DNA of 63,492 bases, the filler included, from Atractiella rhizophila (Eukaryota): the NCBI GenBank assembly GCA_021432655.1. It is 12 parts of 11 records of this genome, joined end to end, with 100 filler letters (N's around TTAATTAATTAA, not from the genome) between each part and the next. Parts side by side here need not be neighbours in the genome. Positions count along the whole stretch, not along the records: positions 30,349 to 36,587 come from MU272318.1; positions 36,688 to 42,926 come from MU272319.1; 10 more parts are not named here. The stretch is one strand, 5' to 3'. Positions 6,279 through 62,310 of this stretch are shown here, piece after piece. Position 1 is the first letter of the stretch, and every line of letters starts with the position of its first letter. Both the position numbers and the translations under genes were made by a program. The notes beneath the pieces were generated by a model that was not told the origin of the DNA, searched no databases, and was given only the letters and a program-made list of their open reading frames with translations.

Positions 6279-6378
6279 NNNNNNNNNNNNNNNNNNNNNN
6301 NNNNNNNNNNNNNNNNNNNNNNTTAATTAATTAANNNNNNNNNNNNNNNNNNNNNNNNNNNNNNNNNNNNNNNNNNNN
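6279..6378. other. Artificial 100-nt contig linker N44-TTAATTAATTAA-N44 (first of 11; others start at 12652, 19022, 20572, 23905, 30249, 36588, 42927, 49257, 55565, 61840)
   Basis: Identical length and core each time, with stops in all six frames. Genes are cut at the linkers and do not continue across them. Confidence 0.98.
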
Positions 6379-12495: not shown

Positions 12496-12856
12496 GTTAG
12501 ACCCTGTAAAATTAATATTATTCCTTCCCAGTATCACGAATGCACAAGAATTGGAGCTGCACTTTCTTAACACCTTTCTGGGTCTTCATATTAACCCTCG
12601 AGCGCAACACAACTCCCTTATATATTCGTCTGGATATGAGATTCAGCTTGCNNNNNNNNNNNNNNNNNNNNNNNNNNNNNNNNNNNNNNNNNNNNTTAAT
12701 TAATTAANNNNNNNNNNNNNNNNNNNNNNNNNNNNNNNNNNNNNNNNNNNNGGAGACGGTGCGTTTTGCCTGGTCTGTTCTATCTTCACCGATTCGGGGC
12801 AACCAGCTTACGAGACACTGAGCTAGTAGGCAGATTATGATTCTATTCCCATAAGC

Positions 12857-13392
12857 ATGCCTCCGAAAGATTTACCGTCAGCTACATGGCCAGAAATAAG
12901 GACGCCTCCAGAAGGCTTTGGCGAGGAGGAAGGAGAGGAAGAGGCGGAAACCTGGCGACGAGCGTGCGTACTTGCCACTCTGTAGATGGATTTGGGATTG
13001 AAAAGTATTCTGGGAGAAGAAACGAAACTGCCTCGTCGAATATCGCTCTTTCGACGACTGGAAACGTCAAGGCCCCGCCTCCGGACGCATTTGCTCCTGC
13101 TTTCAAGATCTTGAGGCGCGCACCACCCCAACCAACCCCTCGTATCAATCCTTCTCACGACTCGAAGGGCCAGAAGACGTTGGAAGAACGACAAGCCGAA
13201 TATGATTCTGCTCGAATCCGAATTTTTGGGGAAGGTTCGCAAGCTGCAGCAGAGAAGGAAAGAGACGCCATTGCCGGGAAGAGAGATAAGAAAGCTCCTG
13301 CTGGATCTCATGTACCTTCAGGATCTGATGGAATCATCAGAGAACCAAAGGGACCCGCAAACCTGAGTGATAAAGGGTTCAAAAGGAAATGA
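12857..13392 (+). CDS. SUZ / SUZ-C domain RNA-binding protein (SZRD1-like)
   Basis: PAFKILRR, KTLEERQAEYDSARIRIFG (SUZ), IIREPKGP...KGF (SUZ-C). One intron near 12964-13019; start codon uncertain. Confidence 0.8.
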
Positions 13393-13801
13393 CATCTTTG
13401 TATACTGAAGCTCTGCAATGACACGAATTTGTCGCGGATCTACTTACTTTCCACAGCAGCTCGCTTCATCCAGGTTGAAGCATCTCTGCAGGTTTTCGAA
13501 AAATTCAATGCTGAGCTGAAGTACAAGGCGACTGAGCATTGCGCCGTGTTCATCATCATCGCACAACTACTTTCTATTTTGTGCAACCTTTTGTTGTGAG
13601 CACGGTGTTGTCATTAATTCTTCAACTTCAACGCCTCAGTGGCAATATCCGCGATCCTGCTCATACAAATACTTACGCCTGCAGACTGCAGCTCTCTTTG
13701 TCTGCGTCCGTCGTTTGGGCTGTACGTTTCCAATCCTGATTGATAAATACCGCGGGTCGAGCTGAAGCGGTCTGAGCTCCCCCTCCTACTTCTTTGACGG
13801 A

Positions 13802-15146
13802 ATGCAAACTCAAGGCAGAAATTACGAGTTCGCTGACAAAGCTCGGGTCTTCACTGTTATTCTCGCTTCTCCGATCCCTAATGCACATCCAACCTACGTT
13901 GCGGGAGCAACAATATCTGGGACCGTAATATTCAACCTTAACGAGCCACAAAAGTTGCGGGAGATCTCATTGACGCTTCGAGGGAAGACCAGAAGCGCGT
14001 TAACAGTTACTCAACACCAAATCGAGTCCGATGGTAAAAGTCAGACGAGGCAGGAGAGGAGGTCTGAGGAATGTGATATCATCAATTTGAAGATGGCGCT
14101 ATGGGATGAAAGGAACCTGCAAGGCTTCAGGATGGATGGGGAGAAGCTTGCGGCACAGACGTCTGACCTTTTATTCAATCCTTCGGCCCTGAACTTTTTC
14201 AGCTGACTATTTCCACAGATATTCCTTCCCATTCTCTATCCAAGTCCCTTTAGCTCCACAATTTGGAGGTCCGGGCATTCCTCCTAGTTTTCACGGATTC
14301 GCAGACAATCACGATCAATTTGTGCTCTATTATCTGAAGGTTGAAGGCGATCGCGTTGGTTTGCACTTCGACCACAAACTTCGCGTGCCTGTTCTCGTCT
14401 CCCCTATCCCCCCAGGTCCGGTTTGGCGAAGTCCTATGTTCCTCGAGGCCACGTCGCGAGGCCAGTTCCCTCCAGGACCTGATTTTGATCCGCAAGGATG
14501 GACCATTTCTGAGCACGAGATGCATCTGAAAGGGACCTTCAGGCAAACCTTAGCTCATATTGGAGTGAAGGTAATGACATATTTCATACCGAAAGGAATT
14601 ATGTCTAACAGTAGTGGCAAACAGTTCGCCCTTCCCAATGCTCCAATATATCTGATTGGCTCTACTTTGCCATTCATTCTCATGCTCGACCTTCACGACG
14701 GAAAGAAAGACGACAAAGTCATCAAGAAGATTGAGTTGTCTTTCCGCCAGACGCTCACAGTTTCCGTGTCTCATCCCAGCAGACGTGAAACTCATTCCAC
14801 CTCCGTTCTCTCTCCGACGATACGAAATGTTGAAGTTGAGGGCAGAAGCGTAAGCCTTGATGAGATGTTTTTTCACACGAGAGATAGGACCAAACGAGTT
14901 ATGGGAGATTTCAATTTGGGGCAATATCCATTATCTCCTGACTTTTCTACTCCAAATTTGACGTTGACCGTATGTAGTGCTTCACCTTCAAGGGATTGCG
15001 CTAACAACATGCTGCAACAGTGGCACATCAATCTCGATTTTGACGTCCCAGGATTAGGAAATGACGAGAAAATGAACATTCCAATTACCCTGGCACCTTT
15101 TCCAGAAGGCATGACGATGACGCCACAATACGCTGCTGCATGTTGA
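13802..15146 (+). CDS. Arrestin-like (Arrestin_N fold) protein
   Basis: PTYVAGATISGTVIFNL..LREISLTLRGK, YSFPFSIQVP..IPPSF, YYLKV, PDFSTPNLTLT/WHINL. At least two short introns; 3' end uncertain. Confidence 0.75.
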
Positions 15147-18853: not shown

Positions 18854-19121
18854 GTGTTAACATTGTACTGTAGAAGGTGGATTGCTTGTTAGGCGTCAGA
18901 AACACATCCAGGTTTACACACCCAACCTCTGAAGGGATAAAAAGATCATGATTGGCATAGATGTAAAACCCTGCATAATCCGCATGTCGAATGGATACAA
19001 GAGAAGGGGTTTAGGCCTTGANNNNNNNNNNNNNNNNNNNNNNNNNNNNNNNNNNNNNNNNNNNNTTAATTAATTAANNNNNNNNNNNNNNNNNNNNNNN
19101 NNNNNNNNNNNNNNNNNNNNN

Positions 19122-19364: not shown

Positions 19365-21110
19365 TTTTCGCTTATAGCAGACAAGACTACAAGGAGCAGT
19401 CACCCCGCCGCCCTTTGGAAGGTTGATGGGCTGAATCTGAGAAATTTTCGGTGTACCATCGCTGCCTGACATGTGCGTGAAGTCTTGTCGTGCTATCCAT
19501 GTCAAGGACTGATTTCGCTTACTTCTCTGTCCGAATCAATAAAACAGTAGTGGATTTTCGGCAGTTCCCGAATAGATTGCGTTCTACTTTTCCCTGCTCC
19601 CCTTTAAGTTCACATGCAACCTGATAATCAATTTGGATTTGTCGGCCGTAACATTGGACAATATTCAACCGCAAAAGCCGTCCCCTTCCCACCTGGTCGG
19701 CCATCTTGTTCAGTATTGGTCGTTGGCAGAATGCGCCTTAGGCTTAGGCTTCAAAGTTTCACCCAGTCAAGACGGCAGTCGCATGCTGGTATGGAATCTG
19801 ACCACAAACCGTGACCACTGTTCAACGGCCACGAGAATTATGGGATTCGACGCTGTTTGAGATTTTGGCTTTAGGACTACATTTGGGGACGCAAGTGCGG
19901 AGCATTGTATCTGACTGAGGGACTGAACTGGCTTGCCAATTTGGGAGTAACTTGTCTTCTGAAGCACTGACAGCCTCGCATTCGCATCGCGAGATTAACT
20001 ATGTAGATGTTACGGATGATGTTGAATTACATGTGCTTCTGCTCCCTCCATTTCCCAAACGGATTTGCAGTGGGGGATACATTCTAAGGTGAAAGAGAGA
20101 AGAGGACTACAAAAGATATTGTTGATTCATGTCGTTTACGCATGCCGGGAATAATAATGCCTCAACTTTTGCACCTTTTATATACTTGTAAGGAAATTTC
20201 TAGTAAAAATCAAGAAAGAGTAAGATGGTAAGAAAACAGAAAGGTGCATTAAAATGAGACAGAATTAGATGAAAGCGCGAGACCACCACATGCACGGTCA
20301 CAAACAAAATCGTCCTGATACAGAGATGTGTTGGGCAAACTTCTCTTAGCTGCGAATGCAGGACTCCATATTCCCATGCGGAATTCTTGGTGTTCCTCTC
20401 GACGTCAGCAACGTCGGAGTCGAGAGATTAACTCAAACACTGGCACAATTTGCAGCGGGACGAGTTAGAGAATTTCAGCTCAGAACCGACCCACATGATT
20501 GATTATTCTTAATATCTAAACCCAGACTGCCTTAGGGGGACATCCAACTTGCCCACCAACCAATTCGGGGGNNNNNNNNNNNNNNNNNNNNNNNNNNNNN
20601 NNNNNNNNNNNNNNNTTAATTAATTAANNNNNNNNNNNNNNNNNNNNNNNNNNNNNNNNNNNNNNNNNNNNGCAACGCTGGCAATCGAACTTTACTGCTC
20701 TCGTTCTCACTGTCTGTCTGTTTTCTAGGATTGAGGACCTTTCTCTCGGCTATTTGAAAACTAGAGCTAATAACCACACACTGGACGTCCAACTTCTGAT
20801 AGTTATGACCAGTTCTACGCGTGTCATTCATTCCCTTCGTTTCGTTCTCTGTTGACAACGTGACGTGCATCTTTTTATTAAACAAAGTAGGGTGTGTAAG
20901 TTCAGTTATGCCGAAGACATTTGTTTCGGACTCCTCTGGTTTTAATCACATACCCACAAAGAAGTAGGTCGGGTTGACTAATCGGGTTCGAACTTACATA
21001 GGGCACTGAGGAGAAAGGAATCCCGTGGAAGATAAGACTCGTAACATTAACGAGTGAATCTATTTCTCATACGATAGTGTTTGTTTTACACATTTTAAAC
21101 CAGCCTTTAG

Positions 21111-23904: not shown

Positions 23905-24004
23905 NNNNNNNNNNNNNNNNNNNNNNNNNNNNNNNNNNNNNNNNNNNNTTAATTAATTAANNNNNNNNNNNNNNNNNNNNNNNNNNNNNNNNNNNNNNNN
24001 NNNN

Positions 24005-30248: not shown

Positions 30249-30593
30249 NNNNNNNNNNNNNNNNNNNNNNNNNNNNNNNNNNNNNNNNNNNNTTAATTAA
30301 TTAANNNNNNNNNNNNNNNNNNNNNNNNNNNNNNNNNNNNNNNNNNNNCAAACACACGGAAAGCAAAGGGGTATGCAACCTAATGATTTTCTGGCTTTAG
30401 AGCAGGAACATGCTGAGTACTCCTGCGTTCTACGACAAGTGTTCCATCACTAAACGAACGCCACACAGGCTCGCTCAAGTATATAATGAGCTTGCAAGGT
30501 ACGTCAGGCTCAGGCTCAAAGAGAATTCATATAAAAACGCGTTAAAACACCACGACAGCAGGTGACCCCAATTTGAAGCAAAAGATAGCTTAC

Positions 30594-36437: not shown

Positions 36438-36730
36438 CCGTTGTGCTGTGATAGAATAGATTCAGTTACGTGTGCTATTGACTTCGATTTTTAATTGCTT
36501 GATCGTTCCTGCAAGTTCTTTTAACCTGTAATACACAGATACTCAACATACAACATTGCGAATTACCTAGTTTTCCGTTTGCCTTTCNNNNNNNNNNNNN
36601 NNNNNNNNNNNNNNNNNNNNNNNNNNNNNNNTTAATTAATTAANNNNNNNNNNNNNNNNNNNNNNNNNNNNNNNNNNNNNNNNNNNNTCTCTTGGCACAA
36701 CCTTCTCGTTTCTCCCACACTAAAGACTCT

Positions 36731-36844
36731 TGTCAGGGTTCGAGCCCCTGATATACCTTAAGTACAGACCAAGATGGGTGTAAACACCCATCATTAGCTC
36801 TTTTAGTTCAGTTGGTTAGCTGTTGGTCTGCAGCCATCTTGACA
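36731..36844. mobile_element. 114-bp solo-LTR/TRIM-like element with tRNA-like boxes
   Basis: Begins TGTCA, ends TGACA, and is flanked by a perfect 5-bp direct repeat ACTCT (36726-36730 and 36845-36849). Confidence 0.8.
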
Positions 36845-36959
36845 ACTCTATTTGGAATCATAGACTGGGAGTGTGCCTGCCCGCTACCGCTGTGGAAGGT
36901 CTGTTCGCTCCCTTCGCTCCTGCTAGGAAGGGAGCAGGAAGGGGAACCAAAGGCTATTC

Positions 36960-37213
36960 AATAAACGGGTTTGACGTCAAACTTGTTTGAGGAGCATACA
37001 TTCAAGTTCGAGCAGATCATGTTGCGAAGGTTCTTTTTAAAGAAGATGGAAGAGATAAACCCAGAATGGGCTCGGTTATATAGGAACGAGATGAGAAGGA
37101 GAGACTTTGAATTAGCGATAGAGTATTGTGACAATGAGTTTTGCGCGGATAGAGTAGATCGATGGATTGAAACAGTTGAAAGGGTCAACCATCCGGGGGT
37201 GTCCTTTGCTTGA
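36960..37213 (+). pseudogene. Orphan C-terminal fragment resembling fungal APH/phosphotransferase-like proteins
   Basis: FEQIMLRRFFLKKMEEINPEWARLY...RRDFELAIEYCDNEF..RVDRWIE resembles, from memory, the C-terminal tail of fungal APH-family proteins. No upstream kinase domain. Confidence 0.4.
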
Positions 37214-37541
37214 AAGATTGCGTTTTTGAGAAGTTGTTAATTGACTTCCTTTATTGACAAAGTTAAAGACTTTTAATTTTCACCAATAGGTGTCATTCAT
37301 CGAGAAAACCACAGGCAGTATGAGCTACATCAATGGAGAAACGTAAAACTCACTGACTAGCAATACACTGATCAGAACTTTGATCACACCATTGATGCAC
37401 ACTTAATACTTTCCCTTAGTTTGCATTGAAAGTTAGGTCATGATGTGGTCAGAAGAACCTCAGATTAACGTTTTAACACTGGTCGACATTCCCCTGTATC
37501 AGCTGCAAAAGAGATTTGGTCCTTGTGAATTGTTCCTGACT

Positions 37542-37667
37542 CTGGTTCCACAACCACGACATGAGAGGAATAAGTACAGAAACAATAGTGGTTTTATTTC
37601 AGTATAGATAATCTACACACCTGGTTCCCCAACCACGATACGAGAGGAATAAGTACAGAAACAATAG
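37542..37667. repeat. 47-bp direct duplication (37542-37588 and 37621-37667), 3 mismatches
   Basis: CTGGTTCC(A/C)CAACCACGA(C/T)A(T/C)GAGAGGAATAAGTACAGAAACAATAG read twice. Confidence 0.95.
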
Positions 37668-38649: not shown

Positions 38650-41600
38650 GTTTGCGCGCATTATGATACTCAGATGGTTGTCAAGAAGGAAGAAGTGGAG
38701 GGAGGTGAAAAGAAGGAGGTTATTTATTATTGGTTTACTTGTAAGGAGTTTAAAGATCATGAAGTCGACCGGAATAGGGACGGATTTGCAAGTGGGGCTG
38801 CACCGACCTCGGAGCTTTTGGTAGGCGTTAAGGCATGTGAGGTAAAGCATGTGAAGTCCAGTGAGCGTTCAACAACACTGAAGGAATTTGGATATGCCTT
38901 CGGTGACAAGATTGATGGAAAGAAGAGTGGCATTCTGTACTTCCCTTACCCCCCTCAACACTTCCGATTCTGGCTCACTTTCCTCTGTGCTCGACGCAAA
39001 CCGCCGTTTAATATTGTTGAGGATTACAAGCTCCATATCATCTTCAAGATGCTTCAACCTGATGCGTACCTTATTAGTGCTGACCAAGTCTTGAAGGATC
39101 TCTAGAACATCTATACTTGAGCTACCCAGATTATTAAGGATGTTTATTTGAAGGTAGAAGTTTCTCCTAATTTTCACATCTCACTTTCTGAAAGATGTGG
39201 GACAGGACATTGACTGGTTTCATGTTTCTACTGACGCTTGGACCTCAAGGAACTACATGGCTTGGCTTGCTGTGCTGGATCATTATTGGTCAGGAACTGA
39301 GGTAAAAGAGATCATTTTAGAGTTTGTTTGGTACAGTGTTAGAGCACTGCTGTGTCCTGTATGCTGAACTTCCTCACAGGCTGAGTGATTCACACACGGG
39401 GAGATATTTGGCCGGAGAGATTGTGAAGGTGCTGGAGCGGTATGGTATTGATGGAAAAGTCAGTTTTGCATGTCCTTTGCCATGTCCATCGAATTAAACA
39501 TGGAATTAGTTGATGAGACTAGTAAGCCATAGTGCGTCAAACAAGGACACAATGGTTTCAGAACTCAAGCTCCTGCTCCCCTCCTTGAAGGGGCAAGAAT
39601 ATCAAATCTGGTGCCTTAATCATGTCCTCAACCTGGTTGCAAAGGTATGTTCCTTAGTTTCTAATCAAGTTTCTTACCTGGCATCCTTTTAGGCTCTGAT
39701 CTTGCCCTTCATGAAAGAGAAGAAAAGAAGGAAGAAGGGCGAAGAAACTGAGAGATTTGAAGATGACAGAGCTGTAAATAGCAGCAAGGAAGAGGCTGCT
39801 ATAATCGATAAGATAGTGGCAAGCCATGATGCAGTGCAGGAAGCTATGGATGATGATATTATTGAAGAGATATCTGATGAAGTATTGAAGGGACTGGAAC
39901 AGGAGGATCTGATGATAAGAGACTGAACATCGAGTTCAGTATGGAGGAGCACCAAGCTGTTCGTGGATGTGTTCAAAGGTCCATATCGCTTGATTATGTA
40001 TTCTTTCCTGAAGACATTGCAGATTTGGGAACTGTCTCACAAGATTGTTAATGGCAGCTCAATGAACCGGAATTTCAGCGTCTTGTGGAGCGATTTTACA
40101 AGGACCTCACAGATGCACGACTTCCAATCCAAGATGTTGTCACCCGGTAGAACAGTCTCTTCCTCTGGCTCGAACGAGCCCTCCTGGTCTGACAAGGTTT
40201 CAATGGTCTTACAGAACAGAGCTCATTCCAACTTAAGAGGTATGAAGTGATGGAACCCAAATGGAAAGTCCTAGGTGAATTGTGGGATGTTCTCAAGGTT
40301 TATCAATTGCTTCAATTTAATCTGTGCAAGATCTGAGCCTAGGCTGCAGCCTTTCTATTCAGCCATAGTCAAGCCATCTGCCAAGAAACGGGTGCTCCTT
40401 ACCGACGTAATCCCTTATCTCAATAAGTTTGACCATAACCTTCACAACCTCAAGCTTAACCGAAATGTGAGTCCGTTTATTCAGTTGGGTGTTTGTCACA
40501 TGATTGCAGTTCTTAATAAATATTATTCAAAGCTTGTCAGGAGACAAGCATGTATAAGTTGGCAATGGGTTCGTCTCTCTTGGTTATTATTACTGAGCTG
40601 ATGTGAACTTTTAGTGCTCCAACCTTACCACAAACTTAAGTACTACGAACACACAGGGTAGCTCACCTCCTAGATTCAAGATATTTGGGCATTGCTATTC
40701 AAAGATCTACCATCCTACTCCTTCTGTAGAAACCATAGTTGTAACTGATCTGCTGGATGAGGACTGGGGAGGATGGTGTAGTGGGCTAAGCACCAGTCCT
40801 GGCCAGCCCAAACGACGGTTTCTATGTGGCTGTGGGTTCGAATCCCACCCTTCCCACCCTGCTTGACCCACCAAGCAACCGCCCTGGCTTGACCTGGGAC
40901 ACTGACACTGACGTCAGTAGCTGAGGGTGATAACCCCTCCGGACACTGTGGGTACCACTGTGGACGCACAGTACAGGGGCGTGGTGCTGTGATGGTGCCA
41001 AGCCTCCCCTTGTTTCTTGGTGAACGCGTTTCCAATGTGCATGAGATCCGCAGCCTTCACACAAGGAGATAGGATGACATTTAGCCGAAGCTTAGAGGCA
41101 TGGTGATCACATGTGAGGTTTTAGTGGGTATTGTTCATAGAATGGAGCCCCACACTGTTCCTTTGCCGATCACGGCGGGTTCGTGCGTAAAAAGCATTTC
41201 CTCACCATAAAAAAAAAAAAAAAAAACTGGATGAGGACTCTGATGTGGAGGAACAGTTTGGACATCGAAAAGATTACCAGCAGACAGTTGAGACGGAATA
41301 TGACGAGATCAGACGGTACTTGGAAGATGACATGGAGAAGACTCGCAAGGACTTCGATGTACTGGCTTGGTGGGATGGAGAATGGCAAGGAAGCTGGTAT
41401 CCTAATCTTGCGAAGCTAGCAATAGCTGTGCTCTCCTGCCCTGGTGTGTACCATTTCCTTACTCCTTGCCTCCTGGTGACCCTTCCTTAGTGGCCAGTAC
41501 CGATGCAGAACGTGCTTTCAGTGTGGGAGGACTTCAGATCACTGGCCACCGGCACAATCTATCACAAGATTCATTCTGTGCTGCTGTGGCTTTAGGCTCC

Positions 41601-42346: not shown

Positions 42347-43026
42347 GTGAGTGGCTGATGTCGTGCTGAAACTTTGCGATCTGGGAATGCTCGTAACATC
42401 TGACCATGTTGCTTGCTGGGCTTCAACACAAGAGAAAGAAACTGGATTTTGTAGAGCTGCTAAAATCAAACGGTGTCTGGATTGTCTGCCGCGTGTGCAA
42501 TTGCAGTCGATATGTTTCTTCGAGATGAACCCATACCGAGTTTCATAGTAGGCAAACCATTCTTGCATCCATTCAGAGAGGCAGAGGTCGAATGTCTGTG
42601 CGAAGGGAGATTCGACGAGGCCTTCATGGATAGCCAAAGTTTGAGTCTTCTAGACTATCTGAGTTGCGTTATTTAAGTGAACTGGACTAAATTCCACACT
42701 ATGAGCTTAGCTAGCTCACACTTGCTTCCCTTCACATTGCTTTGTTCTACTTGTGGGAGAGAAAGATGAAATGGAGGTAGCTAAAAGGATTCCCGAGTCC
42801 TGGTTTTTCGACCAGGAACACGCTTTCAACGTGAATGCACCCCATTCGGCTTGTGCTTACTTTCATTCGTTGGCTTGTAACGCGAGCACCTACGGCCGCT
42901 ACCGGTGAAAATGTTGACCTGTAGACNNNNNNNNNNNNNNNNNNNNNNNNNNNNNNNNNNNNNNNNNNNNTTAATTAATTAANNNNNNNNNNNNNNNNNN
43001 NNNNNNNNNNNNNNNNNNNNNNNNNN

Positions 43027-45009
43027 CTCTCCTCCTTCACCTTTGGCACGTTAGGACGGTCCAAAGAATCTTCATATGTGATGGCGCAACTGAGCGTCAC
43101 CAACAACTCAGATACCAGCTCCGCGAACGGGACAGTACTGATATATAAGTTTCGTGCCACGTTACGGTTAAACATATCGAATTTGGCCGTGTACGCATCC
43201 GTGAGGGTATCCTTGGGATCAAAAGATTTCAGCCGACTGACGCGCTCGTCCTTCGTTAGAGCAGTAGGTCCGTGCCGGATGATCACCCACACGAGGACGT
43301 GAAGAAATGATTGGATGTCGTCGCTGGCACGGTGCTCTCGATGATAGCTCTTCAATAGTCGGAGAGACAGGAATTGGAACGTCCCCTGAGTGACCATAGG
43401 CAAATGTTCGCATTCAGCCAAAAAGGGACGTACAATTCTCTCCAGAGCCCGTGCTTCAACGTGACCTTTGACTTTCGCCAATTCCCAATCAATAAGCAGT
43501 CCACGAACCTCGTCGCCCGCCCGGACGAGGAGTATGTTTCCAAAAGAGACGTCTCGATGGAGAATCTCGGCTTTCTCGACCGCGTCGCGATGAGCTACAA
43601 TCCTTCAAAGTCGGTCTAAATGTAAATGGAGCAAAACAAGAACGTGCCGGTAAAAGCATCAGACATCACTTTTACCAGTTCCCAAGTCGACTTGAACCGA
43701 TTTAACGGCTCTCCCACCTCTTCTAATACTATCCGATAGTGTCTCAGCTTTCGGCCACCCGTCCCCTCAGCAAATTGTAGAGGATTCTGGTTGTCGACGT
43801 CCCCATGGCAGACGACGGTTGCAATGTTCCTTACTTGTTTCAATCTCAAAATTTCATAAACATCTCCCTCCTTCCCATATTCCTCCTTCCTCCAAGTGTC
43901 CTTCAGGAGAACGACCTTCTTCTCTTTGACCCAGTAAGCGTGATAGCAACGAGTGCCACGACCGACAGGCCAACGATGACTACTCGTGAAAGGCTGTGCA
44001 AAGATAAATGTTTCGGTGTCCACGATGACCTGAAAGAGATTAGCCTCCTCCTCCAATCCCAGAGCCTTCCTCGCGTTCGCAGCAGCCTTCTTTCCCTTCA
44101 CACGCTGCACCGAGGTGTCGTGTCCCCTGGCGGACTCAGGCGCATGACTAAAGCGCCAGAGAAATTCACCAAGGTGATTTTCCGGGCCATTGATCTCAAA
44201 GGCATGCGACACTCGAGTTCCAGCTCGGGAATGGCATAGTAGGCGAGCTGTGGTGGACTGAACGTAGAACGAGAAGACGCGAGTTCGTGGCTGCATGATT
44301 TGAATAGCAGTGTGGTAGAGAGCCAACTGCCCCCGAATATCCTTCCCATCATCCGTCTGATTTTCAAAATTGTGATTATCCCTTGAATCAAAAGGTGGGC
44401 TGGTGGAACCTGGCTTCACCTGTCCGAAAAGTTGTAGCTTCTTCATGTTACAGGAAGTGAAGCCTGTCTCAGCGTAGAGAGACAGATCAGGTTTGGCTAC
44501 CGACTCCTGGTAAACCTCGTGGTCGGCATCGGACGTATTCACGAGCTCCCAGCCTGCAGCGAGAAATGGCTCGAGAGCCTTGATCTGCCCTCATTCTCAG
44601 CGTCACCTTCCTCCAACAATTCAAGGCAACCCACGAGGGGACTGTATTGAGCTTTCTCCTGCTCGCCAGTCATAACATCTGGCGCGTTAAGCCTCTTGCG
44701 CTGAAAATCTTGCCGTTTTGGTAGCATGTCCACAACTTTCCCCACAGGAACCTCCTCGAATTCCCCAGCCACATCAAACTCAGCACGAGCGTAGGTGGGC
44801 TTTTGCGCGGCCAAAGATGAAGACGAATCAATTCCGCTGGCATCGATAGTAAACTTGAGTGGCGTTGGCGCGGAAAGGGGTTGTTGTTCTGAACGCTGAG
44901 AGCTGGGTTTTGATGGCGTAGACATTTTTGGGACTGTTTCAGAACTGGGTTCGGATGAGCTGTTGGGAGATTTCGGAGGCGTCTTCAAGGCAGTCTTCAA
45001 GGCAGACAT
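43027..45009 (-). CDS. Fungal-type protein kinase (FunK1 / Pkinase_fungal), 3'-truncated
   Basis: GRGTRCY, LKDTWR, HYRIVLEEVGEPLNRFKSTWELV, LHRDVSFGNILL, GLLIDWELAK, GTFQFLS, DDIQSFLHVLVW. Confidence 0.93.
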
Positions 45010-48658: not shown

Positions 48659-49356
48659 GTTTAAACCTGCCCAAAGTCCGTATCTTCATTAGATTGTCTG
48701 TAATTTGCTTGCATCACAGAATAATTTGAATGTAGCCTTTTCGAGTCCATTTCCTGCAATATATGGCAGCAGCTCCCATCCATGCAGTGTCAGATCAGTT
48801 CTTTCTGATGGACAATACACAACCGTAGTGGCTTAAGCGCAGTGCTATCTGAGCACATCTTGGAAGAACTTTCGCCTCGGTACACAATATGAAAGAAAGA
48901 CACAACGCTTGCTTTCTTGCTCAATAATTGGTTCCCTAAGCTCCAACTTCCATCCAGTGGATTTCTTCTGTTTATCTTTCCTCCTGTCGTACTCTCCTTT
49001 ACACAGATTCTGTAAGACTATGATGATCGGCACTTGAACAAAGTCGTTGTCATGGACTGTTTTGGATGTACTAAACTCATGTCCTTGTTTGAGATTGGCC
49101 CAATTTGAAATTCTCCTCAAGAAACACGAAGAAAGAAACGTAGTAGACGGGAGTCAATGTAAAAGTTGAAGTGAACGGTAGGAGACATAGATACACTGCG
49201 ATAGAAGGACTGTGAAAGGTGTGGACTTCAGTTTCAGTAGAGCTCGTCACTCCATGNNNNNNNNNNNNNNNNNNNNNNNNNNNNNNNNNNNNNNNNNNNN
49301 TTAATTAATTAANNNNNNNNNNNNNNNNNNNNNNNNNNNNNNNNNNNNNNNNNNNN

Positions 49357-55564: not shown

Positions 55565-55664
55565 NNNNNNNNNNNNNNNNNNNNNNNNNNNNNNNNNNNN
55601 NNNNNNNNTTAATTAATTAANNNNNNNNNNNNNNNNNNNNNNNNNNNNNNNNNNNNNNNNNNNN

Positions 55665-56556: not shown

Positions 56557-56687
56557 GACAGCAGGTTGCTTAAGTCACTCGACGATAGGTCGCCTCTCGA
56601 GCTTTACTTTGCTACTAGTTAATGTATGGACAGCAGGTTGCTTAAGTCACTCGACGATAGGTCGCCTCTCGAGCTTTACTTTGCTAC
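56557..56687. repeat. Perfect 59-bp direct duplication (56557-56615 and 56629-56687)
   Basis: GACAGCAGGTTGCTTAAGTCACTCGACGATAGGTCGCCTCTCGAGCTTTACTTTGCTAC twice, with a 13-bp spacer. Confidence 0.97.
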
Positions 56688-60212: not shown

Positions 60213-62310
60213 GGTTGTTTTTGGGAGGTGCGTATCTTTTTCCTTCTGCAAGCGGGAGGTTTGATGAAATTCTGGTTAAGCCAGAATTTTCAGAATTTGC
60301 TTGACATGGTAGTCGTCGCATCCTCACGCCGAGCCAGAGGTAGTAGCTCGTTAAACATACCTCTAGAAAGTTGTAATAAAGAACAAAAGAACACGCTCAC
60401 TTTAGGAGATGTTATCTCCTTGTTATCGCAATGACATTGTCCCATCTGCTTCTGCCACCGAGATTTATCTGCTCGCTCTTTTGCAATTCTACAAAGAGCG
60501 TGCTAAACTACCTCGGAATATTGAATCACAAAGCTTTTCTGCAGATCTCATTGGAAATTTCATATGAAGAGCGAGTTTTGAAGGAAAAGCAAATTTTCTA
60601 CCTTATCACGTCCGGAAGCAATACTTCATCTGATGCAATTCAAAGTATTCCATTACAGACTTGACTCACAGTCGATGTGCCGTTTATCCCAACAAAAAAA
60701 GATACAGATCTTTCTTTCATGGTATCGCGGTGTTTCACCCTCCTCTGGTTTCAATATTCATAGAGTTATACTCGATATCTCTTGTTCTATTCGTCCAGTT
60801 CAATCCCCGGATCTTCTAACGCCAGAATTCAAATGTGTTTAAACGTAATAAATTAATGTACGATATGAAGTGATGGTCAATACTTGAACTTTGCTCGTCG
60901 GAAGTGAGAAATGATGAGACAACAAGTACATGTTTTCTCGACCCATGCACTTCCGTAAGCCGGCTTTTAAATCCTGAGGCAAGCTCATGTACGTGCCTCT
61001 TGTGCATATTGAACTAGCTCCTTCCAAACCCATTCCGGACCCTAGGATGAGTCCTCTTTACAAGGACGTCAGTGCTGCATGGCTCGCACTGTATATTGTT
61101 TAGCTTTGTGACGCTGCACCTGGAACAGAAGCTGCAAAAGCAATTTAATAGGCATTCGAGGACGAGTTGTGAGAAACGCATGTATAACAACTTTGAATTT
61201 CCTGCTTCCAACCACTACCTCTGTACTTGTCAAGTAGACAGGCAGCCGTGATCGAAAGAATAACCTTCGACATAGTGCGCATACACCGAATAATTCAACT
61301 TTACAAGAACGAAAAGCACTTCATGGATTGAAAGGTCTACCACTCTGACACATTGGACTAATCCCACTACTGCTACTCCTTGACATTACGCAAAATAAAA
61401 TGCTGCAAGTTGCTCTCTGGAGCTGAAGGCAATGAATCGTCAACCTCTGTAGAACAGGAACGAAGGAGTATGCTTACCGTATATTCTAATGTGAAATATT
61501 GGTTTAATTCGAGTCCATGCCAACCCTATCCGTCTCTTGAAGGCATCTCATCGTCCCTCCATCCTCCTCCCACTCCACCTTCTGTTTCCCTCCTGTTCCT
61601 TCTAGCAACCCGTTCCAAACATACTTCGCAAGCCTCTTATGCGCTTCGAGGGAGGGATGAAAGCAATCGACGTTGCTGAGTGATTCAACTGGTACCAGAT
61701 ATTCACATCAACGTTGTTTTTCAGTGAAAGGAAGAGAGATATCGCACTCGGAAATGACACCCAGTCGAATTCTAATGGGTGATAAAGTACCGTAAAGTTG
61801 TCATACTTTGCCTGCTTGTACTCGAAAGCGATCCGAATTNNNNNNNNNNNNNNNNNNNNNNNNNNNNNNNNNNNNNNNNNNNNTTAATTAATTAANNNNN
61901 NNNNNNNNNNNNNNNNNNNNNNNNNNNNNNNNNNNNNNNACTGCTGCAAGGAGAATCGAGTACCTTGACAGCCTTTCGAGCAGCAAGATCGCCAGGAACA
62001 AACGGGAAGGCATCACTCGAGTCATTGGTATGACGGACGCAACCTCAGATGACGAAAAGCAGCTTGACGGTCGGCTTGTTCAAAAGCTTCTACGTTGGCG
62101 AGGTGAACCATTTGAAAGATTCGTGCGACTTGTGTCACAAAAGGGGATTGAAATGGAGCAGCAGCTTGGGGCAAAAATTCGTGACACTCCTCGTCATGAT
62201 CCCACTGATTTGACTCCGCGGCTTTACTTTGACTTACGAAAGCTTCCTTGATGCGTCCCTGTTTACATTTTTGATCCTCAGTACTACAATGCCTTGTAGC
62301 TCCCCATGCG

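Follow-up and report, generated by a model that had tools for sequence, protein, structure and literature searches.

What kind of element carries the two internal control boxes of a tRNA gene in the reverse order, with the B box ahead of the A box? This question is raised by a 114-bp unit at 36731-36844 of a 63,492-nucleotide stretch of DNA (hereafter, the window) from Atractiella rhizophila, a fungus of the class Atractiellomycetes (Basidiomycota, Pucciniomycotina; assembly GCA_021432655.1). We found that the unit is a real mobile, multicopy repeat with a presence/absence difference at this site. Judging from their sequences, the A-box and B-box segments are derived from tRNA; the unit as a whole is no tRNA, neither as it stands nor with its ends joined. 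We read this LTR (long terminal repeat)-type unit as probably the solo LTR of a young, multicopy, non-autonomous family that resembles Helenus/TRIMp3, a group of miniature terminal-repeat retrotransposons (TRIMs). LTRs of TRIMs that bear tRNA sequences have already been described, and what appears to be new is the swapped B-then-A order.

A mobile, multicopy unit with LTR-type ends

The unit starts with TGTCA (36731-36735) and stops with TGACA (36840-36844), giving the 5'-TG...CA-3' termini of the LTR type with short inverted ends, and it is flanked on both sides by ACTCT (Table 1). TG..CA ends together with an exact 5-bp target-site duplication (TSD) are the mark of insertion by the integrase of an LTR retrotransposon, and a scan around the site gave this single pair. 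The ends can also be read as TTGTCA/TGACAA with CTC as the duplication; the inverted termini measure 5-6 bp either way. The source piece begins at 36688, 43 nt before the unit. Searches of the window for further copies, by motifs with 2-3 mismatches, with a repeat finder and with blastn-short, gave none.

Copy number and insertion were studied in read data from two runs (X1 and X2) of one sample from one study, which contained 0.81 and 0.76, respectively, of the sampled words of the surrounding 2 kb. Contigs of X1 (43) and X2 (38) were matched to 36688-37287 at 80% likeness. The contig covering the core of the unit had a depth of 3312 in X1 (36737-36814) and of 1975 in X2 (36737-36810), against 117-150 and 93-96 in the respective single-copy flank contigs. 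This ratio points to roughly 20-30 copies whose core is identical, in addition to diverged ones; contig depth summed by bin was uneven inside the unit and unusable as a copy number. The summed depth in X1 was two to three times higher over 36788-36827 (12,656-15,034), the part with the run of four T residues (T4) and the A box, than over 36768-36787 (4,622); overlapping contigs inflate such sums, and other repeat families may have the A-box part in common. A further rise, to about 1000 against about 360 in the surroundings, was seen in X1 at 37088-37127 and points to an additional small repeat that lies 250 nt downstream of the unit.

Loose contig ends began at 36730/36731 (left side) and at 36842, 36844 and 36846 (right side), and both borders coincide with the ends of the unit. 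Because the loose ends start there with differing flanks, the repeat ends where the TG..CA unit ends. The flanks of the other copies were unlike each other (agreement 0.56-0.8), as expected of a dispersed multicopy family. Inside the unit, no variant letter made up at least 5% of the depth in the contigs of X1 and X2, and the family is therefore young.

An empty form of the site was also present. In X1 its joint linked 36725 to 36854 through 9 intervening letters, and in X2 it linked 36727 to 36854 through 7. This form is shorter than the window by 119 bp, that is, 114 + 5, and holds a single 5-mer related to ACTCT. Further to the right it is about 10% different from the window, and it represents a diverged second haplotype or a paralogue, in both cases an empty site. 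Between 36887 and 37117 the empty-site form departs from the window at 22-23 positions and carries 12 extra nt after 36964, and in X1 it was deeper than the form of the window (225 vs 136). The unit belongs to a recently active element, and the difference at this site could serve as a marker.

tRNA-derived segments and internal structure

A perfect T-arm-like hairpin containing the B box opens the unit, and a stretch resembling the 5' part of a tRNA, with the A box, occupies its right part (Table 1). The two boxes share the + strand, where B (36737) is followed by a structured spacer of 46 nt, T4 (36801) and A (36804); the B-then-A order agrees with the preliminary description of this locus. 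The features that it had named (the ends, the ACTCT duplication, the T arm, the A-box stretch, the hairpin and the complementary 8-mers) were all located again.

Table 1. Positions of the mobile unit, its duplications and its internal features in the window
Feature	Position	Strand	Basis or remark
Target-site duplication, left copy ACTCT	36726..36730	.	sequence; empty homologous site holds one related 5-mer
Mobile unit TGTCA...TGACA, 114 bp, read as solo LTR	36731..36844	+	sequence; multicopy; repeat borders at ends
Perfect tRNA T-arm-like hairpin CAGGG-TTCGAGC-CCCTG	36734..36750	+	part of U3 in the proposed model
B-box consensus GGTTCGANNCC within the T-arm hairpin	36737-36747	+	consensus match at 11/11 positions, specified or degenerate
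ATATACC, at the position of a tRNA 3' acceptor strand	36751..36757	+	4/7 pairs with 5' strand
CAGACCAA, complementary to TTGGTCTG; long-range left-right pairing	36765..36772	+	predicted fold, sequence
Hairpin GATGGGTG-TAAA-CACCCATC	36773..36792	+	predicted fold, sequence
tRNA 5'-part-like stretch GCTCTTTTAGTTCAGTTGGTTAG	36797..36819	+	R/U5 in the proposed model
T4, candidate RNA polymerase III terminator and end of R (putative role)	36801..36804	+	sequence
A-box consensus within GCTCTTTTAGTTCAGTTGGTTAG	36804-36815	+	consensus match at 12/12 positions, specified or degenerate
TTGGTCTG, partner of CAGACCAA	36823..36830	+	predicted fold, sequence
Target-site duplication, right copy ACTCT	36845..36849	.	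sequence

A check by shuffling, which the preliminary description had called for, gave the A box in 544 and the B box in 117 of 400,000 shuffled strands of the unit, and both boxes in none; the joint occurrence is more than chance. Perfect T-arm-like hairpins number just 3 on both strands of the window, where the B-box consensus has 2 matches (0.49 expected) and the A-box consensus 4 (1.36 expected). The 16-mer TAGTTCAGTTGGTTAG of the unit matches letter for letter the D arm of a genuine tRNA-Asp on a bacterial contig (L001). An Rfam scan of the unit with E up to 10 gave a weak local match of the T arm to a tRNA-clan model (E = 5.6); besides this match it gave no tRNA and no 5S, and the other rows were long non-coding RNAs at the level of chance.

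The tRNA-like parts together come to about the length of one tRNA. When the ends are joined, the T stem comes to stand 51 nt downstream of the tRNA-like start (48 nt up to the right end, counted from 36797, and 3 nt beyond it), the same distance as computed before. The joined form pairs at 4/7 positions in the acceptor stem and at 1/4 in the D stem; the earlier statement that an unpaired acceptor stem precludes a functional tRNA thus holds, and extends to the D stem. With default settings, ARAGORN called no tRNA gene in the window, in the unit with its flanks, or in head-to-tail dimers of the unit with spacers of 0-5 nt. Relaxed thresholds led to 'genes' even in the monomer, and these calls were treated as spurious. 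The predicted fold of the unit is more stable than that of shuffled sequences (z = -3.3 for the + strand, -3.5 for the - strand).

Two other parses of the interior were considered. The segment AAGATGGG followed by TGTAAAC (36771-36787) resembles the junctions between purine tract and LTR start in printed Helenus sequences. A division into an internal-like part of 50 nt ending with AAGATGGG and an LTR-like part of 64 nt starting with TGTAAAC was rejected, because an unbroken high-depth contig (36737-36814) spans the proposed boundary and the borders of the insertion are those of the 114-bp unit. The left hairpin was likewise considered as a primer-binding site (PBS) for the anticodon loop of the initiator tRNA, like ggttatgagccc of fungal Helenus, with which it has GGTT..GAGCCC in common in the printed sequences. 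This idea was rejected because the hairpin is internal to the unit, is an exact fit to the B-box consensus, and pairs with the 3' end of the primer over 4 bp only, if the initiator tRNA has the sequence that we presume.

Affiliation of the unit and its box order

Helenus comprises TRIMs whose LTRs have tRNA-derived sequence with conserved A and B boxes; it is known from fungi, animals and Selaginella, and constitutes TRIMp3 together with the 5S-bearing Cassandra and Ajax (Kojima 2024, PMC10886601). Its formal definition, as printed, requires merely tRNA-derived sequence. Fungal Helenus has been found in Pucciniales and three Agaricomycetes, with 5-bp TSDs and many solo LTRs, and its mover is thought to be a Copia element (Kojima 2024, PMC10886601). 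Short LTRs in the same source include those of Helenus-9_PSt (112 bp, counted from the printed consensus) and Helenus-1_SMo (120 bp), the internal portions of Agaricomycete and Selaginella families measure 51-85 bp, and certain LTRs start with tgtcag and end with tgaca (PMC10886601).

The unit agrees with these published elements in its TG..CA LTR ends, 5-bp TSD, short length and multicopy dispersal, in having A and B boxes within tRNA-derived sequence of an LTR that is no functional tRNA, and its end sequences are similar (tgtcag... / ...tgaca). Its host belongs to the subphylum of the rusts, in which Helenus is richest according to the published families. A weak lead is given by the last 9 letters of the unit, which occur once in the Helenus supplement, at the end of the LTR of Helenus-1_AB from Agaricus bisporus; beyond short motifs, the motifs of the unit match nothing in the sequences of that supplement that were compared. 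An autonomous LTR retrotransposon would have supplied the integrase for the insertion of the unit, which would then have become a lone LTR by LTR-LTR recombination, and the two steps jointly are probable. No reverse transcriptase, integrase or transposase domain was found by Pfam among the 79 open reading frame (ORF) translations of the window that were scanned, so that the window offers no mobilising partner for an LTR element or for a DNA transposon.

The preliminary description had called the unit a tiny LTR/TRIM family with Pol III (RNA polymerase III) boxes. The small size, the multiple copies, the integrase-type insertion with its empty site and the tRNA-derived Pol III box sequences were all borne out, and the TRIM part may hold by analogy. 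Published precedent for fungal LTRs with tRNA boxes exists in Helenus/TRIMp3 (PMC10886601), and this lowers the novelty of the locus. If the unit comes from a Helenus-like TRIM, tRNA-bearing TRIMs extend to Atractiellomycetes, a class that goes unnamed in the defining paper as far as its text was available (PMC10886601). Permutation of the boxes is likewise unmentioned there. We found no description of the swapped order in the literature on TRIMp3/Helenus, no relevant literature joining permuted tRNA with retrotransposons, nothing pertinent under the promoter boxes, and none on retrotransposons of Atractiella rhizophila.

Several observations weigh against the reading as a solo LTR of a Helenus-like TRIM. 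About 36 Helenus LTR consensus sequences (26 + about 10, of about 230 families), judged by eye as printed, all have contiguous A and B boxes followed by a T-run and a short tail, whereas the unit has the order B, T4, A with the parts 46 nt apart and lacks the contiguous A-then-B arrangement. A TRIM consists of two LTRs around a short internal portion with a PBS and a polypurine tract (PPT), and measures less than about 1-1.3 kb in total. The window has one copy, in which no second LTR, PBS or PPT was seen, and the loose-end flanks of the other copies (agreement 0.56-0.8) did not share any PBS-like or PPT-like sequence. No further member of the family turned up beyond this sample: three 19-21-mers of the unit were absent from the literature and an exact 24-mer had 0 matches in metagenome scans; a gapped B..A pattern had 1 match in these scans, in a bacterial tRNA-Met/tRNA-Asp array unrelated to the family. 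The uniformity of the copies hides any signal of selection on the boxes. By analogy, the unit may be a solo LTR of a TRIM, and the alternative is that it is the LTR of an autonomous element.

How could the boxes of such a family come to stand in the order B, A? By construction an LTR is U3-R-U5, that is, the 3' end of the RNA is written ahead of its 5' end. The order B, T4, A might then be the U3-R-U5 image of a whole element that is one stretched tRNA-like Pol III unit, a proposal that we put forward tentatively and regard as rather unlikely. Transcription by Pol III would begin just upstream of the A box in the 5' LTR (by a few nt, at about 36785-36797); the transcript would cross a short internal PBS-PPT domain, reach the B box with which the 3' LTR opens, and end at T4. 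U3 would comprise the T arm with the B box and the hairpin, a short R of about 8-20 nt would lie around GCTCTTTT, U5 would hold the A box, and the PBS-PPT domain would take the place of the anticodon and variable region of a tRNA. Reverse transcription would then necessarily give every LTR the two halves in swapped sequence (B, T4, A). In a full-length copy, about 50 nt plus the internal domain would separate the A box of the 5' LTR from the B box of the 3' LTR, and TFIIIC tolerates such A-to-B spacing in yeast tRNA genes. Complementarity between U3 and U5 (36765-36777 with 36823-36841) could hold the RNA ends near each other for strand transfer. Solo LTRs would be promoter-dead for Pol III, and just two-LTR copies or LTR arrays would be transcribable. 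The proposal differs from Helenus and Cassandra in that these have a whole promoter unit in each LTR, whereas here the halves would be in two LTRs.

Support for such a split unit comes from T4, which is the sole run of at least four T on the + strand of the unit and lies between B and A; the - strand has none. For a very short R, Cassandra offers a precedent, as its RNA is described with just an 18-bp terminal duplication (Kojima 2024, PMC10886601). On the other side, an R of 8-20 nt is very short, and T4 would be located at +5 to +8 of the proposed transcript and would also be met in the 5' LTR. We grade the proposal low because no full-length copy, PBS, PPT or RNA was seen, because T4 would also stand in the 5' LTR, and because the family is uniform. 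If U5 and U3 do share a promoter, this would be a new use of Pol III by a retroelement in which transcription competence is tied to the intact two-LTR state, and it would account for the origin of 'permuted' tRNA-like sequences in genomes. Prediction of tRNA genes and annotation of repeats would also be affected, as tRNA-based screens would miss such LTRs.

A serious alternative, to which we give somewhat less than an even chance, is that the tRNA-like pieces are inert relics that play no part in Pol III transcription. The LTR would be transcribed by RNA polymerase II (Pol II) from U3, or the family would be dead; the pieces would be two fragments captured or inherited from a tRNA or a short interspersed nuclear element (SINE), or the outcome of rearrangement in a Helenus-type LTR. 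A B box placed before an A box cannot act as a type-2 promoter inside one LTR, given what is established for TFIIIC. The acceptor, D and anticodon stems have been lost, T4 lies inside the tRNA-like 5' part, and the AT-rich GATATAC about 40-45 nt upstream of 36797 makes a Pol II start conceivable. However, the boxes are perfect (12/12 and 11/11) and the rest of the tRNA is unrecognisable, a pattern that SINEs and Helenus also show where the promoter is retained. The summed length of the parts, almost that of one tRNA, also speaks against relics, and the family is young and mobile, so it has been transcribed by something. If the pieces are relics nevertheless, the unit is an ordinary solo LTR.

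Another route to A before B is the one proposed in the preliminary description, namely a Pol III promoter completed at the junction of a 2-LTR circle or of head-to-tail LTRs, the junction transcript driving propagation. We consider this model improbable. It accounts for the T stem standing at nearly the distance found in a real tRNA once the ends are joined; the joined ends would form a 10-bp palindrome of the sort found at the junctions of retroviral circles, and published descriptions mention tandem arrays in Cassandra and in one Helenus family. The flank of one other copy has TTGACA five nt ahead of TGTCAGGG. The letters before TGTCAGGG in that copy are ...GAATTGACACCT plus T (loose end before 36730), so that six letters identical to those at the right end of the unit stand 5 nt upstream of the left end of that copy; they could represent an adjacent LTR end or chance. 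Against the model, no joint going back into the unit was seen among the contigs of X1 or X2, a weak point given that contigs reach about 30 nt into the repeat and that collapsed repeats could hide an LTR-LTR joint. ARAGORN saw no tRNA in the dimers, and the sequence adjacent to the junction resembles neither a PBS (the complement of a tRNA 3' end) nor a purine-rich PPT. As no PBS or PPT stands beside the junction, an RNA made of LTR alone would be without an obvious route of reverse transcription. Moreover, 2-LTR circles are dead ends in known systems. An ordinary full-length element would be a simpler route to A before B than a circle junction, and it would account for the swapped order equally well. 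Circles of the IS911/IS30 type belong to bacterial DNA transposons, in which -35 and -10 halves are joined into a junction promoter; they have in common with the junction model the completion of a promoter by abutted ends, and no junction was present among the contigs of the unit.

It is also quite improbable that the unit is a miniature inverted-repeat transposable element (MITE) with very short inverted repeats and a 5-bp or 3-bp duplication, moved by a DDE transposase (Ginger- or Transib-like), its tRNA-like content being incidental. The inverted ends TGTCA/TGACA, or TTGTCA/TGACAA with the CTC duplication, would suit such an element, as would a small, structured, AT-neutral unit with internal inverted repeats and a dispersed uniform family. 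However, the terminal inversion of 5-6 bp falls short of the usual 10 bp or more of MITEs. TG..CA ends with 5 bp are the signature of fungal Copia-type integration and, in the published families, of fungal Helenus, and the difference of 119 = 114 + 5 at the empty site also argues against a MITE.

Some known systems were compared and set aside. Cassandra, a plant element, has a 5S-derived type-1 promoter contiguous in one LTR; the unit is fungal and without 5S similarity, and membership was rejected on the lack of a 5S rRNA-derived match in the Rfam scans. The very short terminal redundancy of Cassandra RNA (18 bp) is like the R proposed for the unit (PMC10886601). Self-complementarity of the LTR and tandem arrays are also described for Cassandra in published accounts. 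The 5' head of a tRNA-derived SINE (SINE2) has A then B and is followed by a 3' tail, and its TSDs, made by long interspersed nuclear elements, vary in length. A SINE2 was rejected for the unit, which has B then A, no tail, TG..CA ends and an exact 5-bp TSD. Permuted tRNA genes of Cyanidioschyzon and some green algae resemble the unit, in published accounts, in having the 3' part upstream of the 5' part, a short spacer and a tRNA-like joined length. They differ from it in giving a functional cloverleaf after circularisation and in not being known as mobile repeats with TSDs; with 4/7 acceptor pairs, 1/4 in the D stem and 0 ARAGORN genes in the dimer, the unit was rejected as a gene of this kind.

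A non-mobile origin, whether by chance, as debris of a tandem tRNA pair (a B..A pattern does occur between neighbouring tRNA genes, as in the bacterial tRNA-Met/tRNA-Asp array) or as a circularly permuted tRNA gene (such genes exist in some algae according to published accounts), is for practical purposes refuted by the multiple copies, the sharp borders at the unit ends and the homologous empty site, and by the 4/7 acceptor stem without a cloverleaf after permutation.

Other features of the window

The window is made up of about 12 short unrelated pieces, most of about 6.3 kb, which need not be neighbours in the genome and are separated by eleven linkers of 100 nt (N run, TTAATTAATTAA, N run) at 6279-6378, 12652-12751, 19022-19121, 20572-20671, 23905-24004, 30249-30348, 36588-36687, 42927-43026, 49257-49356, 55565-55664 and 61840-61939. 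Its ORFs are short and interrupted, as would be expected of a eukaryote with introns, and Pfam gave ordinary eukaryotic genes.

A tRNA-like sequence of 90 nt was located at 40767-40856 (+), 4 kb from the 114-bp unit on the same scaffold. It has an A box at 40774 and a B box at 40835, its T arm is perfect and the strands of its acceptor stem pair. It scored 31.8 bits against the tRNA model of Rfam (gathering threshold 29), was not called by ARAGORN and has no T-run after it. The sequence may represent a tRNA gene with an intron, a pseudogene or the head of a SINE or Helenus-type element. A scan for TG..CA ends with TSDs around it gave 2 candidates, against about 0.7 expected by chance.

Direct repeats were found at 37542-37588 and 37621-37667 (47 nt, 94% identity, spacing 79 nt) and at 56557-56615 and 56629-56687 (59 nt, 100% identity, spacing 72 nt). 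An ORF at 43616-44590 (-) encodes a FunK1 fungal protein kinase (PF17667, E = 2e-21) and is 99% identical to an Atractiella rhizophila protein. As paralogues with 82% and 96% identity are present in the species, this ORF belongs to an expanded family.

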